Assembly: GCA_025284135.1 (NCBI GenBank)
Contig: GCA_025284135.1_3646.2
Length of the DNA stretch: 41,948 bases
Source of the DNA: a phage
Reading direction: 5' to 3' (one strand)
The translations under genes and the position numbers were made by a program. A model generated the notes under the pieces. The model was given only the letters and a program-made list of their open reading frames with translations, was not told where the DNA came from and made no database searches. Of this stretch, positions 459 to 8,196 are shown in pieces (the first letter of the stretch is position 1; each line of letters begins with the position of its first letter).

Positions 459-1013
459 TTACTCCCCGCTGTCAATAGCAAAACTCATTGCAATACGGTA
501 TGCCTCTTCTAATGGTAAGAGTCTCCCCCACACATCCCAACCGACATCAAGCTGCCTGCCAAACAACTGTTGTGTGGTTCCGTGAGCATGACCGAACAGT
601 TGGACTGATCCGTGATGCTTTCTGTTCCACTTTGCAAATTGGTAATGGCTCATACAGATCAAATTCTTGTTGTGGCGAAGCTCGTAATAATCTACAACCT
701 CATGATAGAACTCTTTCATAATTCTGACAGTCGTCCTTGTGTCATGGTTGCCACGAACAAGAATAATATGTCCGTTCAACATATTTAGAATATCTGGAAG
801 TAAGTTGTTGATATTCTTATCATTAGTGCACGCAATATCCCCCAAGTGGAACACAGTGTCTGCAGGTGACACAACAGAGTTCCACTCGGCGATGATTCCC
901 GCATTCATACTGTCAAGATTGTGATCATACTGAGATCTGTGTTTTTGACATGAATCAAACTCCATGACCCGCTGGTGGAGAAAGTGTGTGTCGCTTGTTA
1001 CAAAGTATTTCAT
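459..1013 (-). CDS. calcineurin-like metallophosphoesterase (lambda-phosphatase-like), candidate polynucleotide 2',3'/3'-phosphatase
   Basis: Motifs SDTHF (DxH), HLGDIA (GD), GNHD, GHAHG; start chosen at internal MKYFVTSDTHF ATG (1011-1013), 8 nt after stop of upstream kinase gene. Confidence 0.7.
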   Translation of the reverse strand: MKYFVTSDTHFLHQRVMEFDSCQKHRSQYDHNLDSMNAGIIAEWNSVVSPADTVFHLGDIACTNDKNINNLLPDILNMLNGHIILVRGNHDTRTTVRIMKEFYHEVVDYYELRHNKNLICMSHYQFAKWNRKHHGSVQLFGHAHGTTQQLFGRQLDVGWDVWGRLLPLEEAYRIAMSFAIDSGE

Positions 1014-1020
1014 ACATTCC

Positions 1021-1428
1021 TCATTTAAGTTTAATGCAGTTTTTAAGTTGGCGTTCCATACGATCCACAACCTCGTCTGAAGCATGAATGCTTTTATTAC
1101 CGTGGCGGTTTTCAACCACGATTACGGTATAACTATACCCATAACTGATTGCCATGTCAATATATTTTTGCACATATTTTTCTTTTGTAAACGTATTACT
1201 TACCACGATACGGTCGTATCCCATACGCATCATATCTTCTACGTTATCTTTGCACCATTTTGCTGCAAGTGTGACTTTACTTGCATCCCAGTTGTAATTT
1301 CCATCATCGTCGTACCAGAACATGTCGTTCTCAAAATGTGGATACAGACCCTCTAAAGATAGCGCATTTGCCAGTGTTGATTTGCCAGACCCTGGTAGAC
1401 CACGCACGATATATAGCATTTTAGACAT
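1021..1428 (-). CDS. P-loop polynucleotide 5'-kinase-like protein (T4 Pnk kinase-domain-like)
   Basis: Walker A GLPGSGKST and IVVSNT block resembling T4 Pnk GCPGSGKST / IISDTN; start at MSKMLYIVRG (ATG 1426-1428) preceded by GGAGGGTCAC. Confidence 0.55.
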   Translation of the reverse strand: MSKMLYIVRGLPGSGKSTLANALSLEGLYPHFENDMFWYDDDGNYNWDASKVTLAAKWCKDNVEDMMRMGYDRIVVSNTFTKEKYVQKYIDMAISYGYSYTVIVVENRHGNKSIHASDEVVDRMERQLKNCIKLK

Positions 1429-1456
1429 AGTGACCCTCCGTTTTAATTTCAACGAT

Positions 1457-1485
1457 AGTATACCTAACTGTTTTGTTAATTTCAA
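1457..1485 (-). promoter_or_regulatory. sigma70-like promoter for minus-strand kinase/phosphatase operon (-35 TTGAAA, 17 nt, -10 TATACT)
   Basis: Reverse complement of 1457-1485 reads TTGAAATTAACAAAACAGTTAGGTATACT, about 30 nt upstream of ATG at 1428. Confidence 0.45.
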
Positions 1486-1528
1486 GTGTTGACACTAGGT
1501 TATTTGTGTGGCAGGATAGACTGACAAA

Positions 1529-2464
1529 ATGACAAATGAGGAACGTATGATGAAGTATTTTAATGCAGACGACCTAGTTGACAAAGGTCTTGTAACCAGC
1601 AGATATTACCCAGATCTCGGGTTAAAGATCTATAAATATGCTAGAAAAGTATTTTACAACAATTTATGGCATTTGTCCCCTCGTTTACTGGAGTGCCGAG
1701 GCATTGTTGTCGGGAATGAAGGAAATGTTGTGGCATGGCCATTCACAAAAGTGTTTAACTTGGGAGAAAACTCCACCAACCTACCGGACAGTAAACTTGT
1801 GACTGCGGTAGAGAAAAAGAACGGATTCCTCGGTGTGGTATCATCTCATAAAGGTGAACTATTGTTCTCAACAACCGGATCTCTTGATTCTCCATATTGT
1901 AACCTCGCAAAGGAAACCATCCAGGAGCAATGTGGTAATTTAGATCTTATCAAGAAGGTTATGGGCAATGAAAACATGACATTCATGTTTGAAATTTGTC
2001 ACCCTTCAGATCCGCATATTGTTCAGGAAGATCATGGCGCATATTTGATAGGTTGCAGATATAATGATTCTGGAATAATGCTACCAGAAGCAGCTTTAGA
2101 TGGGATTGCCAAATACCTTGGCGCAAAACGTCCTCACACTGTGCGTGAAATTCCGTTCAGCTATGCAAAAGAATTGGCTGCAGAAACAAGAGGTGAAGGG
2201 TATATGATTCGTAAGCCTTACTACCCTTATGATCTGCAGCTGAAGATCAAGTCTCCATACTATCTGGCACGGAAGGCCGTAATGAGGGGTAAAGCTTGGA
2301 AGATTTGGGATGATGATATCTTTAAACGTATTGACGAAGAGTTTTACGGCATGATAAACTTCATTCGTAGCAATTACACAGAAGATGTGTGGAACTGCCT
2401 CCTGGAGCAGGAACGCCGTGAGATACTTGACCACTATTTCCACAACGAGGACTATATGCAATGA
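1529..2464 (+). CDS. RNA ligase-like nucleotidyltransferase (ATP-dependent ligase superfamily)
   Basis: Motif I KKNG (KxNG), EGYMIRKP (motif IV-like), KIKSPYY (motif V-like); no OB/DNA-ligase C-domain; better RBS (GAGGAA) supports alternative start at 1547. Confidence 0.5.
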   Translation: MTNEERMMKYFNADDLVDKGLVTSRYYPDLGLKIYKYARKVFYNNLWHLSPRLLECRGIVVGNEGNVVAWPFTKVFNLGENSTNLPDSKLVTAVEKKNGFLGVVSSHKGELLFSTTGSLDSPYCNLAKETIQEQCGNLDLIKKVMGNENMTFMFEICHPSDPHIVQEDHGAYLIGCRYNDSGIMLPEAALDGIAKYLGAKRPHTVREIPFSYAKELAAETRGEGYMIRKPYYPYDLQLKIKSPYYLARKAVMRGKAWKIWDDDIFKRIDEEFYGMINFIRSNYTEDVWNCLLEQERREILDHYFHNEDYMQ

Positions 2465-2508
2465 AGAAGTGGAAAGTTCTTTTTAATCATTCAGCTTAAG
2501 GGGGCTGT

Positions 2509-3117
2509 ATGAAACTTGTGCATGGTGTTGGTATTAATGATGCAGACTATCCTGTCAGGGTTTTAGACAAGGATACTGGAAAGAGAATCATGTGTCCTTT
2601 TTATATGACATGGTCAAATATGCTAGGAAGGTGTTACCTTAAAAACAAGAAATTTGAAGCTTATGCTATGGTAGAAGTTTGTGAAGAATGGAAAATCTTC
2701 AGCAACTTCAAGCGTTGGATGGAAAAACAAGATTGGCGGGATAAATTTTTAGATAAAGATATCCTCTTTGAAAATAATCTTGTATACTGTCCAGAAGCGT
2801 GTATTTTTGTTCCCCGTGAAATAAACAACTTCTTTGTAGCAAGGGTGCCACAAAGAGGTGAGTGTTTGATGGGGGTAAGAAGAAAAGGCCCCTCTTTTGC
2901 TGCCTATTGCAAAGATGGGGTTAAGGACACGCGGGTTTATCTTGGAACCTTCCCCACGCAGATTGAAGCACATATGAGATACTTAGAATATAAACTGCAA
3001 CTTCTTAGAGACTTGATTGGAACTGTAGATGACAGTAGGTTGCTATTAGGATTACGAAGAATTGAGAATAAGATAGTTTTAGCTTTATCTTCAAAAACAC
3101 CGATAGAAAATTTTTAG
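2509..3117 (+). CDS. free-standing homing-endonuclease-like DNA-binding protein (AP2-type domain)
   Basis: W-x2-M-x2-RC ... EW motif common to phage HNH/AP2 endonuclease-like proteins, YLGTF AP2-like segment; RBS AAGGGGG. Confidence 0.45.
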   Translation: MKLVHGVGINDADYPVRVLDKDTGKRIMCPFYMTWSNMLGRCYLKNKKFEAYAMVEVCEEWKIFSNFKRWMEKQDWRDKFLDKDILFENNLVYCPEACIFVPREINNFFVARVPQRGECLMGVRRKGPSFAAYCKDGVKDTRVYLGTFPTQIEAHMRYLEYKLQLLRDLIGTVDDSRLLLGLRRIENKIVLALSSKTPIENF

Positions 3118-3125
3118 AGGCATGT

Positions 3126-3473
3126 ATGAAAGTTTGGATAGATGATTTGCGTAACCCAGCTGACTACGGACATGTAGATGCAATTTGGTTTAAAACATCA
3201 CAAGAGGCTATGGAGTTTCTCAATAATCCTGCTAAAATGTATCGAAGAGTGACAGAGTGGTTCTTTGACCACGATTTGGGTGAAGACTCTGATCAAGACG
3301 GATATGCTGTTTTATTGCGCCTGGAAGAGCTATTTGTATTTGGTAAGCCTCCTGTAGTTGACAACGTGAAGATTTTCGTGCATACTTCTAATCCATCAGC
3401 GGCTCGTAAATTCATGCTTGCAGCTGACTCGTTTAAAAAGTTTGGAATAGAGATTAAACAAAACATCTACTGA
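3126..3473 (+). CDS. hypothetical protein with WIDDxRxP / DHDLG / HTSNP motifs (possible receiver-like cyclic-phosphate-processing domain)
   Basis: 115-aa ORF, RBS AGAGG; three conserved-looking acidic/His motifs; 9 nt upstream of Sir2 gene. Confidence 0.35.
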   Translation: MKVWIDDLRNPADYGHVDAIWFKTSQEAMEFLNNPAKMYRRVTEWFFDHDLGEDSDQDGYAVLLRLEELFVFGKPPVVDNVKIFVHTSNPSAARKFMLAADSFKKFGIEIKQNIY

Positions 3474-3481
3474 GGGCACTT

Positions 3482-4243
3482 ATGCGACGACTGATTATTA
3501 TCTCCGGTGCTGGTTTGAGCGCTGAATCTGGTATTCCCACTTTCCGATCTGGTAGCACTGCAATGTGGGAGAATTTCAGCATCGATGAGGTGTGCAACAT
3601 CCACACCTTTGCCAAGAACTACTATAAGGTGCATGACTTTTACAATGCACGTCGTGTAGCTCTGGGCAGTGTTGATCCTAACCTTGCACATCTTCGGATC
3701 GCTGAGTGGTATTCCCGCTGGTCTGGTCGTGTGATCAACCTTACCACCAATGTAGATGATTTGCTGGAGCGTGCTGGTGTAAAACATGAAGATATTTTAC
3801 ATGTCCACGGGTATTTGCCTGAAATCACCTACGAAGATGCTGAAGGTAATGATGTAATTAAAAATATCGGATACACGGAGGTAGATACAGGCAAGTATAC
3901 CTGGGTTAAGCCCAATGTAGTGTTCTTCGGTGAGGTTGCTCCTAAGTATACAGACATGTATGACCTGTTGACATCTCTCACAAGCAATGATATGGTGATC
4001 CTGGTAGGTTGTTCTAACACAGTTATTAATTTTAACTGGGAATTGTTTCCTGCTACTTGTAAAGGCACAAAACTGCTGATTGTAAACAAGTATGATTCGC
4101 AGAGTGCAGATGGAAGTGGCATTTCACGTAGCGACCTTTATCAATATGAGGATCGCGGGATCCCTGTATGGTTTAACGGTGCTGTTGACGCTTTCTCTGA
4201 TAAAGTATTTATTGAAACTGTAGAAAACTTTATGGAACTTTAA
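3482..4243 (+). CDS. Sir2-family NAD-dependent protein (sirtuin-like) lacking zinc ribbon
   Basis: GAGLSAESGIPTFR Rossmann motif and HVHG catalytic His typical of Sir2/CobB; no CxxC...CxxC zinc module. Confidence 0.7.
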   Translation: MRRLIIISGAGLSAESGIPTFRSGSTAMWENFSIDEVCNIHTFAKNYYKVHDFYNARRVALGSVDPNLAHLRIAEWYSRWSGRVINLTTNVDDLLERAGVKHEDILHVHGYLPEITYEDAEGNDVIKNIGYTEVDTGKYTWVKPNVVFFGEVAPKYTDMYDLLTSLTSNDMVILVGCSNTVINFNWELFPATCKGTKLLIVNKYDSQSADGSGISRSDLYQYEDRGIPVWFNGAVDAFSDKVFIETVENFMEL

Positions 4244-4256
4244 AAGGAGACCTTTA

Positions 4257-4970
4257 ATGCTGAATACTAAACTGATCGACAACCTGGAAAAACTGTCTCA
4301 GCCTGAAAACTACCTTTGGTCTGCCAACTGGGTGGAAAACTGGAACCGTGTGGCAGCTAAGGTGAAAAAATCATACACACCATTCGAATTACAGCTTAGC
4401 TTCATTGAGGAAGAGTTCAATGAAGTTTTGGAAGAGCTGGAGAAAGGTGATGGTGGAGATCACTTGCTAAAAGAGGCCTGCGATCTTCATGTTGTCACAA
4501 GTTATGCCGCTTATCTTGTTAATGACAATCACGAAAAGTGGTCAAACCTGTTTGATAATCCACGAGGTATTAAGTTCAAGATTGGTGAGTTCTATGATAC
4601 ACTGATCGCTGCGAAAAACACCTCTAAGCAAAGAGCGTCTGCTTACCGCTTAGCAGAGTTGTCAACAGCTTTGCTGTTCCAGCTTCGCGGCGATGTGTGC
4701 GGGATGATGCGTAAGGTTCTCAAATCGAATGACAGCAAGTTTGCACGGGTCAACCATCTACGGTATTCACACGGTGCCAGTGCAGATATGCCTGCTGAAC
4801 AACTCATCGAGTTGGAGATTAAAGATCTTGAGCGACGCTTTGATGGTCGATATGAAGGTTTTGTTGCTAAGGAAGAATTCTACAACGGTAATAAAGTTAT
4901 CATATTCCTTGACAGTAAAGGTAAGATCATGAAGCCTTCAAGCTTCAAGGATGTAACAGAGTATATTTAA
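4257..4970 (+). CDS. putative MazG-like nucleoside triphosphate pyrophosphohydrolase
   Basis: EEEFNEVLEELEKGDGGDHLLKEACD resembles MazG EExxE...ExxD metal-binding helices; RBS AAAGGAGA. Confidence 0.35.
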   Translation: MLNTKLIDNLEKLSQPENYLWSANWVENWNRVAAKVKKSYTPFELQLSFIEEEFNEVLEELEKGDGGDHLLKEACDLHVVTSYAAYLVNDNHEKWSNLFDNPRGIKFKIGEFYDTLIAAKNTSKQRASAYRLAELSTALLFQLRGDVCGMMRKVLKSNDSKFARVNHLRYSHGASADMPAEQLIELEIKDLERRFDGRYEGFVAKEEFYNGNKVIIFLDSKGKIMKPSSFKDVTEYI

Positions 4971-4976
4971 CAACAT

Positions 4977-5000
4977 AGCCGGGATCACCCGGCTTTACTT
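4977..5000 (+). terminator. rho-independent terminator-like hairpin
   Basis: AGCCGGG-atca-CCCGGCT followed by TTACTT, immediately after stop at 4970. Confidence 0.5.
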
Positions 5001-5342: not shown

Positions 5343-5598
5343 TCTTGCTAAACCTGTAGAAGCACACCAGTTTGACGGAAGCTCTTCATCAGTATCTGAT
5401 CTGCAACGGTGGATTGATACAGGCGTGTTTACATCGTCACCTGTTCGGACCAGAGATCTTCGTCGTATGTGTGAGCTTGTAGAGCCATTTGGTAACCTAG
5501 TCTTGTACCAGGGTGATTGGCTTGTTGATTTTATGGGGGACTGGTTGGTAATGAGTAAAGAAGAGATGTTTAAAATTTTTAAGGAAGAGGTAGAGTAA
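5329..5598 (+). CDS. hypothetical protein
   Basis: 89-aa ORF with RBS TAAGGAGGA 6 nt upstream of ATG. Confidence 0.45.
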   Translation: MPLFNLAKPVEAHQFDGSSSSVSDLQRWIDTGVFTSSPVRTRDLRRMCELVEPFGNLVLYQGDWLVDFMGDWLVMSKEEMFKIFKEEVE

Positions 5599-6881
5599 TG
5601 CATCAAATCAAAACAACACTGTACGCACTGAACAAAGATGGCAGCTACCAACAGTGGAAAGTATTCACGGATGGTGATAAGGTTATCGTAGAGTTTGGCA
5701 AGCTTGATGGTAAACTGCAATACAAAGAGACGATCTGCACACCTAAGAACGTAGGTCGTGCCAACGAGACTACAGCTGAGCAACAGGCCGAGCTTGAGGC
5801 TATCAGTAAGTGGGAAAAACAAGTCCGTCTGGGGTATGTTGAAAACATGGAAGATTGCGAGCAGGGTGTTGACCTTTTACCCATGCTGGTGCATGACTAT
5901 CTGAAGCGTGGCAAGGCACTTAAATTACCTTGCTGGATCTTGCGTAAGTTAGATGGCCTTCGTCTGCTTGTTGTTTTCCAAAATGGTGAGCCTAAATTTA
6001 TTTCCCGTGGTAATAAGTCCTACCCTATTCAAGGAAAGCTTTTAGAGCAACTTCGTTCTTTCCATTCTACCACTGGGATTAAACAACTTGATGGGGAACT
6101 ATACATTCATGGTCTTCCTTTGCAGAAAATAGTGTCTCTTGCTAAACGGTGGCGCACACAGGAAGAGATTCAGGCCGAGATCGATAAAGACTATGAGGCA
6201 GATAAAAAACGCCGTCATGCCGCAATTAAGGCAGGCTTATCAACATACAAAAACTTCAACAAGGTAGATATTCCTGTCAATGTTGAGCCTGTTCGTGATG
6301 ATTTGCGTTACGGTGGGTACTGTAGCTACGATCTGGAGTATCACATTTTTGATATTCCTAGCGACAAGGTGTGGTGGGATCCAGAAACAGAGTCTGGACG
6401 CTGCAAGGATCTTATGGATGCAGAGGATACCGTTACCACTCTGATGCTTGACCATATCAAGGTTGTTGACGCAGAGCTTGCGTACACAGTTGATCATTGC
6501 GAAGAATCTGTTGGTATATTCATGTCCGAAGGATATGAAGGTACCATTATGCGTAACTTCTGTGGTAAATATGAGTACGGTCAGCGAACATCTGAAGCAT
6601 TGAAATGGAAAAAGTTCAACGACGCAGAGGTGAAAGTTATTGACGTTGAGAAAGATAAGAATGATGAAGGTGTTCTTATCTGTGTTGACAAGGAAGGTAT
6701 TGTTGTTAAAATGAAAATGAAAGGTACGCACGAGGAGCGTAGCTATGACAGAATGCAGGAAATGATCGGCAAGTTTGTCACCTTCAAATATCAAGCAAGG
6801 ACAGAAGACAACAACTACCAATTCCCTGTCGGTATCTGCGTCCGAAATGTTAACCCAGACACTTGGGAGGTGCTGGAATAA
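5598..6881 (+). CDS. ATP-dependent DNA ligase
   Basis: Motif I KLDGLR (adenylation lysine), 427 aa, stop/start overlap with upstream gene. Confidence 0.85.
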   Translation: MHQIKTTLYALNKDGSYQQWKVFTDGDKVIVEFGKLDGKLQYKETICTPKNVGRANETTAEQQAELEAISKWEKQVRLGYVENMEDCEQGVDLLPMLVHDYLKRGKALKLPCWILRKLDGLRLLVVFQNGEPKFISRGNKSYPIQGKLLEQLRSFHSTTGIKQLDGELYIHGLPLQKIVSLAKRWRTQEEIQAEIDKDYEADKKRRHAAIKAGLSTYKNFNKVDIPVNVEPVRDDLRYGGYCSYDLEYHIFDIPSDKVWWDPETESGRCKDLMDAEDTVTTLMLDHIKVVDAELAYTVDHCEESVGIFMSEGYEGTIMRNFCGKYEYGQRTSEALKWKKFNDAEVKVIDVEKDKNDEGVLICVDKEGIVVKMKMKGTHEERSYDRMQEMIGKFVTFKYQARTEDNNYQFPVGICVRNVNPDTWEVLE

Positions 6882-7023: not shown

Positions 7024-7512
7024 ATGAAACTTGATAAAAATGTTCAACGAAAGGCTTTCTTGGATATGATCGCATATTCGGAAGGCACAGATAATGGTAG
7101 ACAACCTACCAAGGATCGGGGATACGATGTCATAGTCGGAGGCAAGCTGTTCAGCGATTACAGCAAGCATCCCGGTGTTTACGTTAAGCTAAATGCTAAA
7201 CTTACCTCCTCCGCTGCTGGGCGTTACCAGGTTTTGGAGAAGTTTGCTAAACACTACATGGAACAGCTAGGATTGCCAGATTTTGGCCCTGCCAGTCAGG
7301 ACAAGATTGCGTTGCAACTGATCCGTGAGTGTAAGGCGCTCGATGATATTGATGAAGGTCGTATCCACCAGGCCATTTATAAATGCCGCAGCCGCTGGGC
7401 AAGCTTCCCACCACCGCCGGGGGCTGGAAAGCTGTACAATCAGCGAGCAGAAAGTATAGACAAGATGCTGGATGTCTTTAAGAAGGCAGGTGGAGTTGTT
7501 ACAGATGAGTAA
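7024..7512 (+). CDS. endolysin, lambda R-like lytic transglycosylase
   Basis: QRKAFLDMIAYSEGTDNGRQPTKDRGYDVIVGG...AAGRYQ closely parallels phage lambda R N-terminus as recalled. Confidence 0.85.
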   Translation: MKLDKNVQRKAFLDMIAYSEGTDNGRQPTKDRGYDVIVGGKLFSDYSKHPGVYVKLNAKLTSSAAGRYQVLEKFAKHYMEQLGLPDFGPASQDKIALQLIRECKALDDIDEGRIHQAIYKCRSRWASFPPPPGAGKLYNQRAESIDKMLDVFKKAGGVVTDE

Positions 7513-8188
7513 CGGGATTGACTGGTGGAGTGTCTTTAGATATGATACAGGCACTGGAAGGTTGTTTTGGAAGTCCCCACCAAAAAACAAACCCCAACTA
7601 ATGGGAAAGGAGGCTGGATGTACTAACATGGACGGGTACAGGGATATAATCTATCGTGGCGTGCATTACTACAGGCATAGATTGGTTTGGGAGATGCATT
7701 ATGGGCCCATCCCAGAAGGGTACGAAGTTGATCACATAAAGCCACTTTTCTATTCCGATGGTGTTGCTGATGACAGGATAGAAAACCTGCAACTGTTAAC
7801 ACCAGAAGAAAACGCAAAAAAGGCGGCAGATGACGGATGCCTGGCACGCAAGATACCTAAATCCAACACTGGACACTTGGGTGTATATTTTCATGCTAGA
7901 ACTGGAAGGTATGCTGCTTTTGGTAAGGTAGGTCATTACTATAAGAAAGACCTAGGAGAATACGATACCTTAGAAGAGGCCATTGCTGCTCAAAAGTCTT
8001 TTGAAAGTGGCACGTTTGTCAGGGAATATCGTGGACAGCCTTTAGGGAGGGATAAATCTAGAGGTGTCAGATTTGAAGCAGATAGGGGCAAATGGAAAGT
8101 AACTTTCAGAGGAAAAACGTTAGGCAGGTTTGACACCAAAGAGTCTGCTGAAGCGTGTTACGCAAAGGCTCTTACTGAAAGCTTGTAA
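7505..8188 (+). CDS. HNH homing endonuclease with two AP2-type DNA-binding domains
   Basis: HRLVWEMHYGPIPEGYEVDHI...NLQLLTPEEN HNH core; two GVYF/GVRF...LGxFxTxEEA AP2-like repeats; ATG overlaps endolysin stop. Confidence 0.75.
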   Translation: MSNGIDWWSVFRYDTGTGRLFWKSPPKNKPQLMGKEAGCTNMDGYRDIIYRGVHYYRHRLVWEMHYGPIPEGYEVDHIKPLFYSDGVADDRIENLQLLTPEENAKKAADDGCLARKIPKSNTGHLGVYFHARTGRYAAFGKVGHYYKKDLGEYDTLEEAIAAQKSFESGTFVREYRGQPLGRDKSRGVRFEADRGKWKVTFRGKTLGRFDTKESAEACYAKALTESL

Positions 8189-8196
8189 CAGTATCA

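Follow-up and report, generated by a model that had tools for sequence, protein, structure and literature searches.

The gene neighbourhood analysed here has been described by Iyer, Burroughs, Anantharaman & Aravind (2022; Viruses 14:1977; PMC9503650) as "prototyped by phage V5". Their 'type 2' arrangement comprises a sirtuin, a T4-like RNA ligase, a cyclic-phosphate processing receiver (cREC), a nucleotide kinase and MazG, with or without a calcineurin-like phosphoesterase, and its sirtuin was proposed to remove RNA 2'-phosphates in a Tpt1-like reaction (PMC9503650). The same authors also counted cREC among the processors of ADP-ribose derivatives (PMC9503650). Phage Sir2 proteins without a zinc site had been remarked on by Skliros et al. 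(2016; PMC5107563), who argued for a deacylase role in Vibrio phages and reported expression of the Sir2 gene 20 min post infection. Neither the gene cluster nor the absence of zinc ligands is a new finding. Our literature search found no experimental test of phage Sir2 or cREC activity and encountered cREC in comparative genomics only.

The window, a stretch of 41,948 nucleotides of phage DNA, belongs to a Vequintavirus, and the two genes under study are standard Vequintavirus content. They encode a cREC protein of 115 aa (3126..3473, + strand) and a Sir2 protein of 253 aa (3482..4243, + strand) from a phage clade of class III-derived sirtuins devoid of zinc ligands, and both are part of a conserved Vequintavirus unit. 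The two open reading frames are as originally described: the Sir2 ATG begins at the ninth base past the cREC stop, leaving a spacer of 8 nt (3474-3481), and the GAGGG Shine-Dalgarno sequence serving Sir2 (3472-3476) overlaps the upstream cREC TGA. The first gene of the + strand unit encodes an Rnl1-type (T4 RnlA-like) RNA ligase (1529..2464; Pfam RNA_lig_T4_1, 9e-15; PHROG 562, 5.5e-66) that scores far under the cut-off of the TIGR02308 equivalog (38 versus 242 bits). It is followed by an inserted HNH homing-endonuclease gene (2509..3117, + strand; PHROG 953 HNH endonuclease, 6.6e-70), cREC, Sir2 and, as last gene, a MazG-superfamily-like nucleotide pyrophosphohydrolase (4257..4970, + strand; PHROG 671, 5.4e-22). 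Acidic motifs of the EExxE...ExxD type can be read in the latter, for which no significant Pfam match and, by sequence search, no solved PDB structure were found. Right after its stop lies a terminator-like GC-rich hairpin with a T-rich tail (4977..4994, + strand), recognized by consensus scan only; the annotation of phage Murica has a terminator at the equivalent place.

Two divergently transcribed genes adjoin this unit on the - strand. One encodes a P-loop nucleotide/polynucleotide kinase-like protein (maximal ORF 1021..1485; Pfam AAA_33, 6e-10; PHROG 2071, 3e-55; PHROG 505 polynucleotide kinase, 5.5e-10) whose likely start yields 136 aa at about 1021..1431. The other encodes a calcineurin-like metallophosphoesterase (maximal ORF 459..1115; Pfam Metallophos, 5e-06; PHROG 547 phosphoesterase, 1e-52), a candidate RNA 3'-end healing enzyme that is 97.7% identical to gp074 of phage JES2013 and whose likely start yields 184 aa (459..1013), a call also found in a Logan contig. 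All six components of the 'type 2' neighbourhood could be located with Pfam and PHROG within 459..4970. Gene content and order match gp076-gp079 of Escherichia phage rV5/JES2013, annotated as Rnl1, a hypothetical protein that corresponds to cREC, Sir2 and a nucleotide pyrophosphohydrolase, with amino-acid identities of 98% for Rnl1 and 100% for both Sir2 (gp078) and the MazG-like protein. Scans of the window for tRNA genes and Rfam families found none.

The 115-aa protein, which the original prediction had called receiver-like, is a member of a family that bears the very name 'cyclic-phosphate processing receiver' (PF20274, cREC_REC; 60.8 bits for a cut-off of 27; 2e-16), a match far beyond chance. 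It displays the receiver-type (beta-alpha)5 fold with the DD, D and T/S active-site residues, and D6, D7, D48, D50, H86 and N89 are invariant or nearly so across a family sample of 730 clusters at 50% identity. These invariants argue for catalysis or ligand binding. Compared with receiver domains such as those of CheY, NtrX and Spo0A, cREC carries no output domain and no beta5 lysine equivalent to CheY K109, no position past residue 99 reaching at least 50% conservation in 116 family members; it possesses instead specific invariants (R9, [H/N]49, D50, H86 and N89) that generate a DxD pattern recalling that of HAD phosphatases. Its company also differs from that of two-component receivers. Contexts beyond the window, read from individual phage records, place cREC with Rnl1, kinase, metallophosphoesterase, Sir2 or Nudix genes in every examined lineage with identifiable neighbours, and no histidine kinase was seen near it at any examined locus. 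No solved structure was found for cREC by sequence search. Phage PR1 has a distant cREC located within its array of tRNA genes, and the protein P0284 is a fusion of cREC with a calcineurin-like phosphoesterase. P0284 was not accepted as direct Rosetta-stone evidence on the phosphoesterase of the window, the two being related at the superfamily level only (BLASTP not significant). Another candidate, P0155 (2443 aa, eight apparent cREC stretches), turned out to be a false positive, namely an Ig-like repeat protein that PF20274 does not match.

The Sir2 protein matches PF02146 far beyond chance (98.2 bits for a cut-off of 24; 7e-28) and no other Pfam family, the Tpt1/KptA profile included. It is a single-domain protein encoded within a phage early-gene operon and carries no sensor domain fusion. 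The motif GAGLSAESGIPTFR occupies aa 9-22 and the catalytic His-Gly pair aa 109-110; seventeen positions (G9, A10, G11, F21, R22, Y54, R57, N90, D92, H109, G110, F148, F149, E151, G176, S178 and N202) show no variation among 52 diverse homologues, and the set of residues for NAD+ binding and catalysis (GAGxS, FR, the N/D of TQNxD, His-Gly, GxS and the terminal Asn) is complete. The closest sequences are CobB (1s5p; 3e-21 with phmmer) and SIRT5, with which the phage protein shares GAGxS, FR, the N/D of TQNxD, HG, FGE, GxS and the class III Y-x-x-R motif, its invariant Y54/R57 aligning with CobB Y92/R95 in FYNARR. The AlphaFold model (pLDDT 89.6) likewise retrieves CobB with Foldseek (E 1.8e-18, TM 0.74-0.84), and the top 50 matches are all sirtuins with a probability of 1.00. 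By its sequence, the phage protein is a derived class III sirtuin of the CobB/SIRT5 type with predicted catalytic competence. The class III acyl-lysine pocket is mostly retained (Y54, R57, V91, V146, F148/F149). The clade departs from CobB/SIRT5 in several respects: the zinc cysteines are lost, TQN[IV]D reads T[TA]NVD with Thr or Ala in place of Gln, CobB A76 becomes an invariant Cys38, the tunnel V-Y-P becomes V-I-N-F and the proteins are acidic (median pI 5.1, range 4.6-6.05). In the neighbourhood found in the window, the gene moreover stands in an RNA-repair rather than a metabolic context. Scores against the NCBIfam CobB models are well below their cut-offs (NF040867, 104 versus 320 bits; NF001753, 122.6 versus 243 bits).

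The original prediction described the protein as a phage Sir2 with no CxxC...CxxC and lacking the zinc ribbon. The first part is borne out: only three cysteines are present (C38, C177 and C193), none in a CxxC, and neither CxxC nor a conserved Cys occurs between residues 110 and 146 in any of 120 homologues of 46-93% identity. The cysteines of the CobB zinc site align with Tyr or gaps, and they are likewise absent from the Sir2 homologues of T5-like phages, Klebsiella phages, KVP40 and jumbo phage BF. A cryptic zinc site is ruled out, since the clade holds no conserved Cys or CxxC anywhere. The second part was overstated, because AlphaFold still predicts a three-stranded ribbon-like module at residues 110-146 with a pLDDT of about 95; according to this model, the module would still fold; only its ligands are gone, throughout the clade. 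Loss of the zinc site had further been taken to point to Sir2 variants of the NADase or ADP-ribosyltransferase type. This pointer is weak, with CobB and SIRT5 as nearest relatives, Y-x-x-R and pocket kept, and no PADLOC defence Sir2 model matched at E <= 0.01. A defence-type NADase origin was rejected given these relatives and the lack of a PADLOC match, and the protein stands apart from the Sir2 NADases of defence systems (ThsA, DSR1/2, SIR2-HerA, SIR2-pAgo), whose profiles it does not match. It also differs from SirTM, the macrodomain-linked ADP-ribosylating sirtuins: its neighbours are HNH, cREC, MazG-like and Rnl1 genes, and no Macro family match was obtained with Pfam or PHROG among the ORFs scanned between 459 and 6881.

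The pairing of Sir2 with cREC, presented at first as a coupled system, is not obligate. The Sir2 clade was found in 1023 phage records and cREC in only 347, and cREC lies within 10 kb of Sir2 at only 8 of 64 IMG/VR Sir2 loci, a distribution that rules out an obligate two-gene system. Conversely, 12 of 13 viral contigs with cREC also carry a Sir2 of this clade. A 4-nt overlap between cREC and the Rnl1 stop is present in two lineages; in this ancestral arrangement, translational coupling joins cREC to Rnl1 and not to Sir2. An RNA-end-processing gene neighbours Sir2 at 41 of the 64 loci, in several orders: Rnl1-cREC-Sir2 in rV5-like phages, Rnl1-cREC-kinase-x-Sir2 in Mydovirus-like phages, and Sir2-x-HAD_SAK_2, the latter a 'Swiss army knife RNA repair' phosphatase (1.8e-20), in T5-like phages (28 of the 64 loci). 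In Phapecoctavirus-like phages, Sir2 and cREC are separated by about 31-33 kb. In the Serratia jumbo phage BF, which represents the 'type 1' neighbourhood, the order is reversed: a zinc-less Sir2 of the same clade (AQW88637, 40% identity) is directly followed by a cREC (AQW88638) fused to a Nudt16-like Nudix domain. In place of Rnl1 and a kinase, the neighbours here are genes for Nampt, NMNAT/ADPRase, an Acb1-like 2H protein and PhoH.

The reading that best accommodates these data, to which we assign a probability of about 0.4, is that Sir2 assists the repair of tRNA/RNA ends as an accessory that uses NAD+. This option had been mentioned in the original prediction, whose interpretation is partly supported overall; genomic context favours it above the other options, and it coincides with the published prediction (PMC9503650). 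The module would assist the phage in repairing tRNA or other RNA cut by metal-independent host nucleases, whose products end in a 2',3'-cyclic phosphate and a 5'-OH. The kinase would phosphorylate the 5'-OH; cREC, a putative phosphoesterase relying on aspartates with D48-x-D50 at the phospho-acceptor position of receivers, and/or the metallophosphoesterase would open the cyclic phosphate; Rnl1 would seal the break; and Sir2 would remove a residual 2'-phosphate with NAD+. In this last reaction, a phosphate oxygen would attack C1'' of NAD+ with release of nicotinamide, after which the ribose 2''-OH activated by His109 would attack phosphorus to form ADP-ribose 1'',2''-cyclic phosphate, which cREC might also linearize. 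Such chemistry would parallel both the two-step sirtuin deacylation and Tpt1/KptA, the proposed functional analogue, also NAD+-consuming and associated with RNA ligation; the two are likened in their supposed working only, their folds being unrelated (Sir2 Rossmann versus ART-type) and not homologous. Tpt1, an enzyme of ART-type fold, operates in two steps via a 1'',2''-cyclic ADP-ribose product, in parallel with sirtuin chemistry.

Several lines of evidence speak for the repair reading besides the match with the V5-prototyped neighbourhood (PMC9503650): the invariant NAD-binding and catalytic residues together with a confident CobB-like model, the repeated association of the Sir2 clade, in varying gene orders, with enzymes that process RNA ends, the near-constant presence of Sir2 on viral contigs that carry cREC, the Rnl1/cREC overlap, the invariants of cREC, its occurrence in the PR1 tRNA array and its fusion to a phosphoesterase in P0284. 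The clade-wide loss of zinc ligands fits an altered substrate-binding module. Against it, the Sir2 clade is acidic, as RNA-binding enzymes seldom are, the acyl-lysine pocket is mostly retained, 23 of the 64 Sir2 loci have no recognizable RNA-repair neighbour, the genes lie far apart in Phapecoctavirus-like phages, and the BF Sir2 has as immediate neighbours genes for NAD salvage and for an Acb1-like, anti-CBASS 2H enzyme, with no RNA ligase. In addition, kinase, metallophosphoesterase and Rnl1 already constitute a complete healing-and-sealing set. A kinase/phosphatase of the T4 type acting with Rnl1 yields a normal 3'-5' junction, which makes removal of a 2'-phosphate unnecessary. Should the published prediction be true, this would be the first sirtuin acting on a nucleic-acid phosphate, a convergent replacement of Tpt1/KptA, and cREC would be a receiver domain turned phosphoesterase. 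The chemistry of two well-studied superfamilies would be extended and steps added to phage counter-defence against tRNA-cleaving immunity, by a zinc-less sirtuin present in more than 1000 sequenced phages, T5-like, rV5-like, KVP40-like and jumbo phages among them.

It is doubtful, although this is the strongest of the alternatives, that Sir2 has remained a protein lysine deacylase comparable to CobB/SIRT5, possibly favouring acidic acyl groups, that resets the acylation of host or phage proteins (acetyl-CoA synthetase is the example put forward for Vibrio phages), cREC being functionally tied to Rnl1 and only a genomic neighbour of Sir2. Proximity to CobB and SIRT5 in sequence and structure, conservation of Y54, R57, V91, V146 and FFGE, the invariant catalytic His109 and the predicted folding of the ribbon module all speak for this role, as do the absence of cREC from the majority of Sir2-bearing phages, the Nampt/NMNAT nicotinamide-recycling genes next to the BF Sir2 and the argument of Skliros et al. 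with its expression datum (PMC5107563). However, all four zinc ligands have disappeared across the clade, the scores fall far under the CobB cut-offs, the motif changes (T[TA]NVD, Cys38, V-I-N-F) are specific to the clade, and linkage to enzymes of RNA terminal phosphates is kept across several unrelated gene orders.

The BF island lends itself to another explanation, which we consider unlikely: Sir2 and cREC would act, as a counter-defence, on small molecules derived from NAD+ or ADP-ribose, or on NAD-capped RNA, so that NAD-derived immune signals such as cyclic ADP-ribose isomers would be destroyed, sequestered or diverted, and the products degraded by cREC and its fused Nudix domain. In this block, Sir2 and the Nudt16-like Nudix-cREC fusion are found with an NMNAT/ADP-ribose pyrophosphatase and Nampt, which match NAD reconstitution of the NARP2 type (summarised in PMC13464706), and with the Acb1-like 2H protein (PF23474, 3.6e-15). 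The Nudix domain fused to cREC is of the decapping type, an acidic Sir2 surface suits small molecules better than RNA, and cREC was listed among ADP-ribose-derivative processors by Iyer et al. (PMC9503650). The BF context, however, represents a single lineage; in that of the window, Sir2 and cREC are accompanied by RNA ligase, kinase and phosphoesterase, and no likeness to known defence or anti-defence Sir2 models was detected. No sirtuin is known to hydrolyse cyclic ADP-ribose signals. Less likely still is the stricter version, suggested by the location of the BF pair within an island of NARP2-type NAD salvage and Acb1-like anti-CBASS genes, in which Sir2-cREC would not be an RNA-junction 2'-phosphotransferase at all but a counter-defence device with NAD-capped RNA or small molecules derived from NAD as its targets; it might, for instance, consume or re-route signals of the cyclic ADP-ribose type, and cREC and the Nudt16-like Nudix would degrade the products.

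Finally, the leading idea of the original prediction, a NADase or macromolecular ADP-ribosyltransferase serving host takeover or superinfection exclusion with cREC as regulator or antidote, is improbable: Sir2 domains without zinc occur commonly in NADase effectors, the phage protein keeps an intact NAD site and the KVP40 Sir2 was first annotated with ADP-ribosylase or NAD-hydrolysis roles, but no PADLOC Sir2 model was matched, fold and sequence are those of class III deacylases, the unit holds no macro, ARH or NADAR antidote gene by Pfam and PHROG, cREC cannot be an obligatory antidote since most Sir2-bearing phages do not have it, and a lytic phage with no NAD-salvage gene annotated in the window or the matching JES2013 stretch would itself suffer from constitutive depletion of NAD.

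Between Rnl1 and Sir2, the window departs from JES2013 by an HNH gene, a chimeric cREC and a lost 4-nt overlap. The HNH gene, specific to the window and absent from JES2013, is outside the functional module. Direct comparison of the two sequences reveals a remnant of the ancestral rV5-type cREC start, ATGAAGAAGT, that overlaps the Rnl1 stop (2461..2470, + strand); the HNH insertion has broken this ancestral overlap. A blastn search of 2474-3331 against JES2013 gave no match, and the sole full-length match for the HNH cassette is in Phapecoctavirus SKA64 (87.6%). Codons 1-69 of the cREC allele are Phapecoctavirus-like and the remainder rV5-like; the protein is 72% identical to JES2013 cREC and exceeds 80% identity in no GenBank phage. 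The origin of this chimeric allele from a homing-endonuclease cassette is new in the present analysis.

The window belongs to a Vequintavirus (an rV5-like Escherichia coli myophage) and shares 99.5% identity with phage JES2013 by megablast. Two open reading frames lie on its forward strand where the original prediction had placed them, encoding a protein of 115 amino acids (3126..3473) and a Sir2 protein of 253 amino acids (3482..4243; Pfam PF02146, 7e-28). They are separated by an 8-nt spacer and the upstream stop codon is overlapped by a GAGGG ribosome-binding site. The smaller protein, at first described as having receiver-like acidic motifs, is cREC (Pfam PF20274 'cyclic-phosphate processing receiver domain', 2e-16), a name introduced by Iyer et al. 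2021 (PMC7824862). The local unit starts with an Rnl1-type RNA ligase (1529..2464), carries an HNH endonuclease gene (2509..3117) between Rnl1 and cREC and continues downstream of Sir2 with a MazG-like pyrophosphohydrolase (4257..4970) and a terminator-like hairpin (4977-4994). JES2013 gp078 and gp079 are 100% identical to Sir2 and the MazG-like protein, respectively. A calcineurin-like phosphoesterase (459..1115) and a P-loop kinase (1021..1485) adjoin the unit on the opposite strand. [quoted passage not shown] The Sir2-cREC feature is standard, previously described Vequintavirus content.

The closest solved structures to Sir2 are the class III sirtuins E. coli CobB (phmmer 3e-21) and SIRT5. 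Its AlphaFold model, computed from 52 homologues, is confident (pLDDT 89.6), CobB being the structure on which it superposes most closely (Foldseek E 1.8e-18, TM 0.74-0.84). None of the residues for NAD binding and catalysis varies (G9 A10 G11, F21 R22, N90, D92, H109 G110, F148 F149 E151, G176 S178 and N202), nor does the class III Y54-x-x-R57 pair. Unlike CobB, the clade displays T[T/A]NVD where TQN[IV]D is expected, an invariant Cys38 at the position of A76 and V-I-N-F instead of V-Y-P. No CxxC or conserved Cys occurs at residues 110-146 in any of 120 homologues (46-93% identity). The zinc cysteines are likewise absent from the Sir2 proteins of T5-like phages, Klebsiella phages, KVP40 and the Serratia jumbo phage BF, the CobB cysteines aligning to Tyr or gaps. 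Since this segment is still modelled as three beta-strands (pLDDT about 95), a ribbon-like module is predicted to be retained, with the metal ligands alone lost. The missing zinc ligand had already been noted in the Sir2/CobB of KVP40-like phages, for which deacetylation of host enzymes was proposed (Skliros et al. 2016; PMC5107563). Because the window protein matches none of the PADLOC defence Sir2 models and scores far under the NCBIfam CobB cut-offs (104 versus 320 bits and 122.6 versus 243 bits), it is not a NADase of the defence type, nor is it a CobB equivalog; it belongs to a separate clade of phage proteins that derives from the class III sirtuins.

The cREC family comprises 730 clusters at 50% identity in an exhaustive profile search. 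Across the 116 clusters compared, D6, D7, R9, D48, [H/N]49, D50, L51, G52, G59, E67, H86, [T/S]87 and N89 show little or no variation and no conserved beta5 lysine was found, a pattern indicating that the acidic pocket and Thr/Ser of receivers were kept and the Lys lost. The phospho-acceptor position bears a D-x-D motif, which we infer to resemble the paired nucleophile and general acid found in HAD phosphatases. In another protein (P0284), cREC is fused to a calcineurin-like phosphoesterase related to that of the window at the superfamily level only. A distant cREC (32% identity) is encoded in Providencia phage PR1 (KY363465; positions 3986-4342 of the locus analysed), in the middle of an array of about 20 tRNA genes.

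The gene order is Rnl1-cREC-Sir2-MazG in rV5-like phages and Rnl1-cREC-kinase-(74 aa)-Sir2-DNA ligase in Mydovirus-like Klebsiella and Salmonella phages. The stop of Rnl1 and the start of cREC share 4 nt in each of these lineages, which makes Rnl1 the tightest partner of cREC. On Phapecoctavirus- and Justusliebigvirus-like contigs, cREC is grouped with the phosphoesterase, Rnl1 and kinase, and Sir2 is found about 31-33 kb away. The Sir2 clade is also encoded on 12 of the 13 cREC-bearing IMG/VR contigs. An obligate Sir2-cREC pair is contradicted by the distribution of both genes: only 8 of 64 IMG/VR Sir2 loci have cREC within 10 kb, and GenBank phage records number 1023 for the Sir2 clade and 347 for cREC. 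T5-like phages encode Sir2 without cREC, followed by a 60-aa ORF and a HAD_SAK_2 'Swiss army knife RNA repair' phosphatase. In the T5-like phage poul124 (MF431735; positions 5985-6491 of the locus analysed), GenBank lists the latter as a hypothetical protein of 98 aa, a truncated call of a 168-aa ORF that matches HAD_SAK_2 at 1.8e-20 and begins MEISNTPIIFLDIDGV, including the HAD DxD motif. In 28 of the 64 IMG/VR loci, Sir2 is followed by a HAD_SAK_2 homologue at a distance of ~1.3 kb or less, and an enzyme acting on RNA terminal phosphates is found near Sir2 in 41 of the 64, in at least five different arrangements.

Earlier authors proposed a KptA/Tpt1-like action on 2'-phosphates for the sirtuin and, for cREC and comparable enzymes, the resolution of cyclic phosphates carried by RNA or ADP-ribose>P (PMC9503650). 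A literature search for experimental characterisation of phage Sir2 or cREC found none. The RNA-repair option of the original prediction fits best, and we tentatively favour, with a probability of about 40%, a module supporting the repair of RNA, probably tRNA, cut by host metal-independent nucleases, through steps that we infer as follows. Healing of the 5' end would fall to the kinase and opening of the 2',3'-cyclic phosphate to cREC, the metallophosphoesterase or both, and Rnl1 would seal the break. The sirtuin would strip a residual 2'-phosphate using NAD+, His109 activating the ribose hydroxyl, a reaction that would parallel both Tpt1 chemistry and the normal two-step reaction of sirtuins; the resulting ADP-ribose cyclic phosphate could possibly be linearised by cREC too. 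However, 2'-phosphate removal is unnecessary in the T4-type pathway, the sirtuin clade is acidic (median pI 5.1) and about one-third of the Sir2 loci show no recognisable RNA-repair neighbour. The acyl-lysine pocket, moreover, is mostly intact, as in a CobB/SIRT5-like deacylase, a rather unlikely identity for a clade departing from CobB at the motifs described. The gene block of phage BF (KY630187, 53.7-61.4 kb) also counts against RNA repair: it encodes NMNAT/ADPRase, Nampt, an Acb1-like 2H protein (PF23474, 3.6e-15), Sir2, directly followed by a fusion of a Nudt16-like Nudix with cREC, and PhoH, and therefore the pair appears to be set there within a NAD-salvage and anti-CBASS counter-defence island. 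Counter-defence acting on NAD/ADP-ribose small molecules or on NAD-caps is doubtful, since RNA ligase, kinase and phosphoesterase are the partners in the window's own lineage and BF is a single lineage. A NADase or ADP-ribosyltransferase, originally suggested from zinc loss, is improbable, since that argument does not hold for a protein that matches no PADLOC model and is nearest to CobB and SIRT5.

The region 2474-3331, containing the HNH gene and cREC codons 1-69, is missing from JES2013 and other vequintaviruses. Its sole full-length match (87.6%) is in Phapecoctavirus SKA64, whose cREC likewise comes after this HNH gene, and an identical HNH-cREC arrangement was found in Logan assembly SRR35925715. 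Ahead of the HNH gene, positions 2461-2470 preserve the initial 10 nt of the ancestral cREC ORF of rV5 type. The pattern suggests a homing-endonuclease invasion across phage subfamilies, in which co-conversion would have generated a chimeric, motif-intact cREC. This cassette replacing the 5' two-thirds of cREC is the sole window-specific novelty.

Compared with JES2013, the window has a second insertion of its own (7401-8192), which carries a forward-strand ORF (7472..8188) encoding a 238-aa homing-endonuclease-like protein with HNH_3 (3.9e-14) and AP2 (1.3e-05, under the Pfam cut-off) domains. The endolysin gene (7024..7512) shares its 3' end with this ORF, and the C-terminus of the endolysin is altered as a result (162 aa versus 156 aa). 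The ATP-dependent DNA ligase (5598..6881, 427 aa) matches Pfam DNA_ligase_A_M over the last ~55 profile positions only, plus an OB domain, and its adenylation domain is therefore very divergent. The gene for this ligase stands immediately after Sir2 in Mydovirus-like phages. Finally, some 18-25 unannotated GenBank records (MG0656xx) entitled 'Campylobacter phage', with C. jejuni as host, match this region of an E. coli Vequintavirus at 97-99% identity and probably represent wrong host labels or contaminants.
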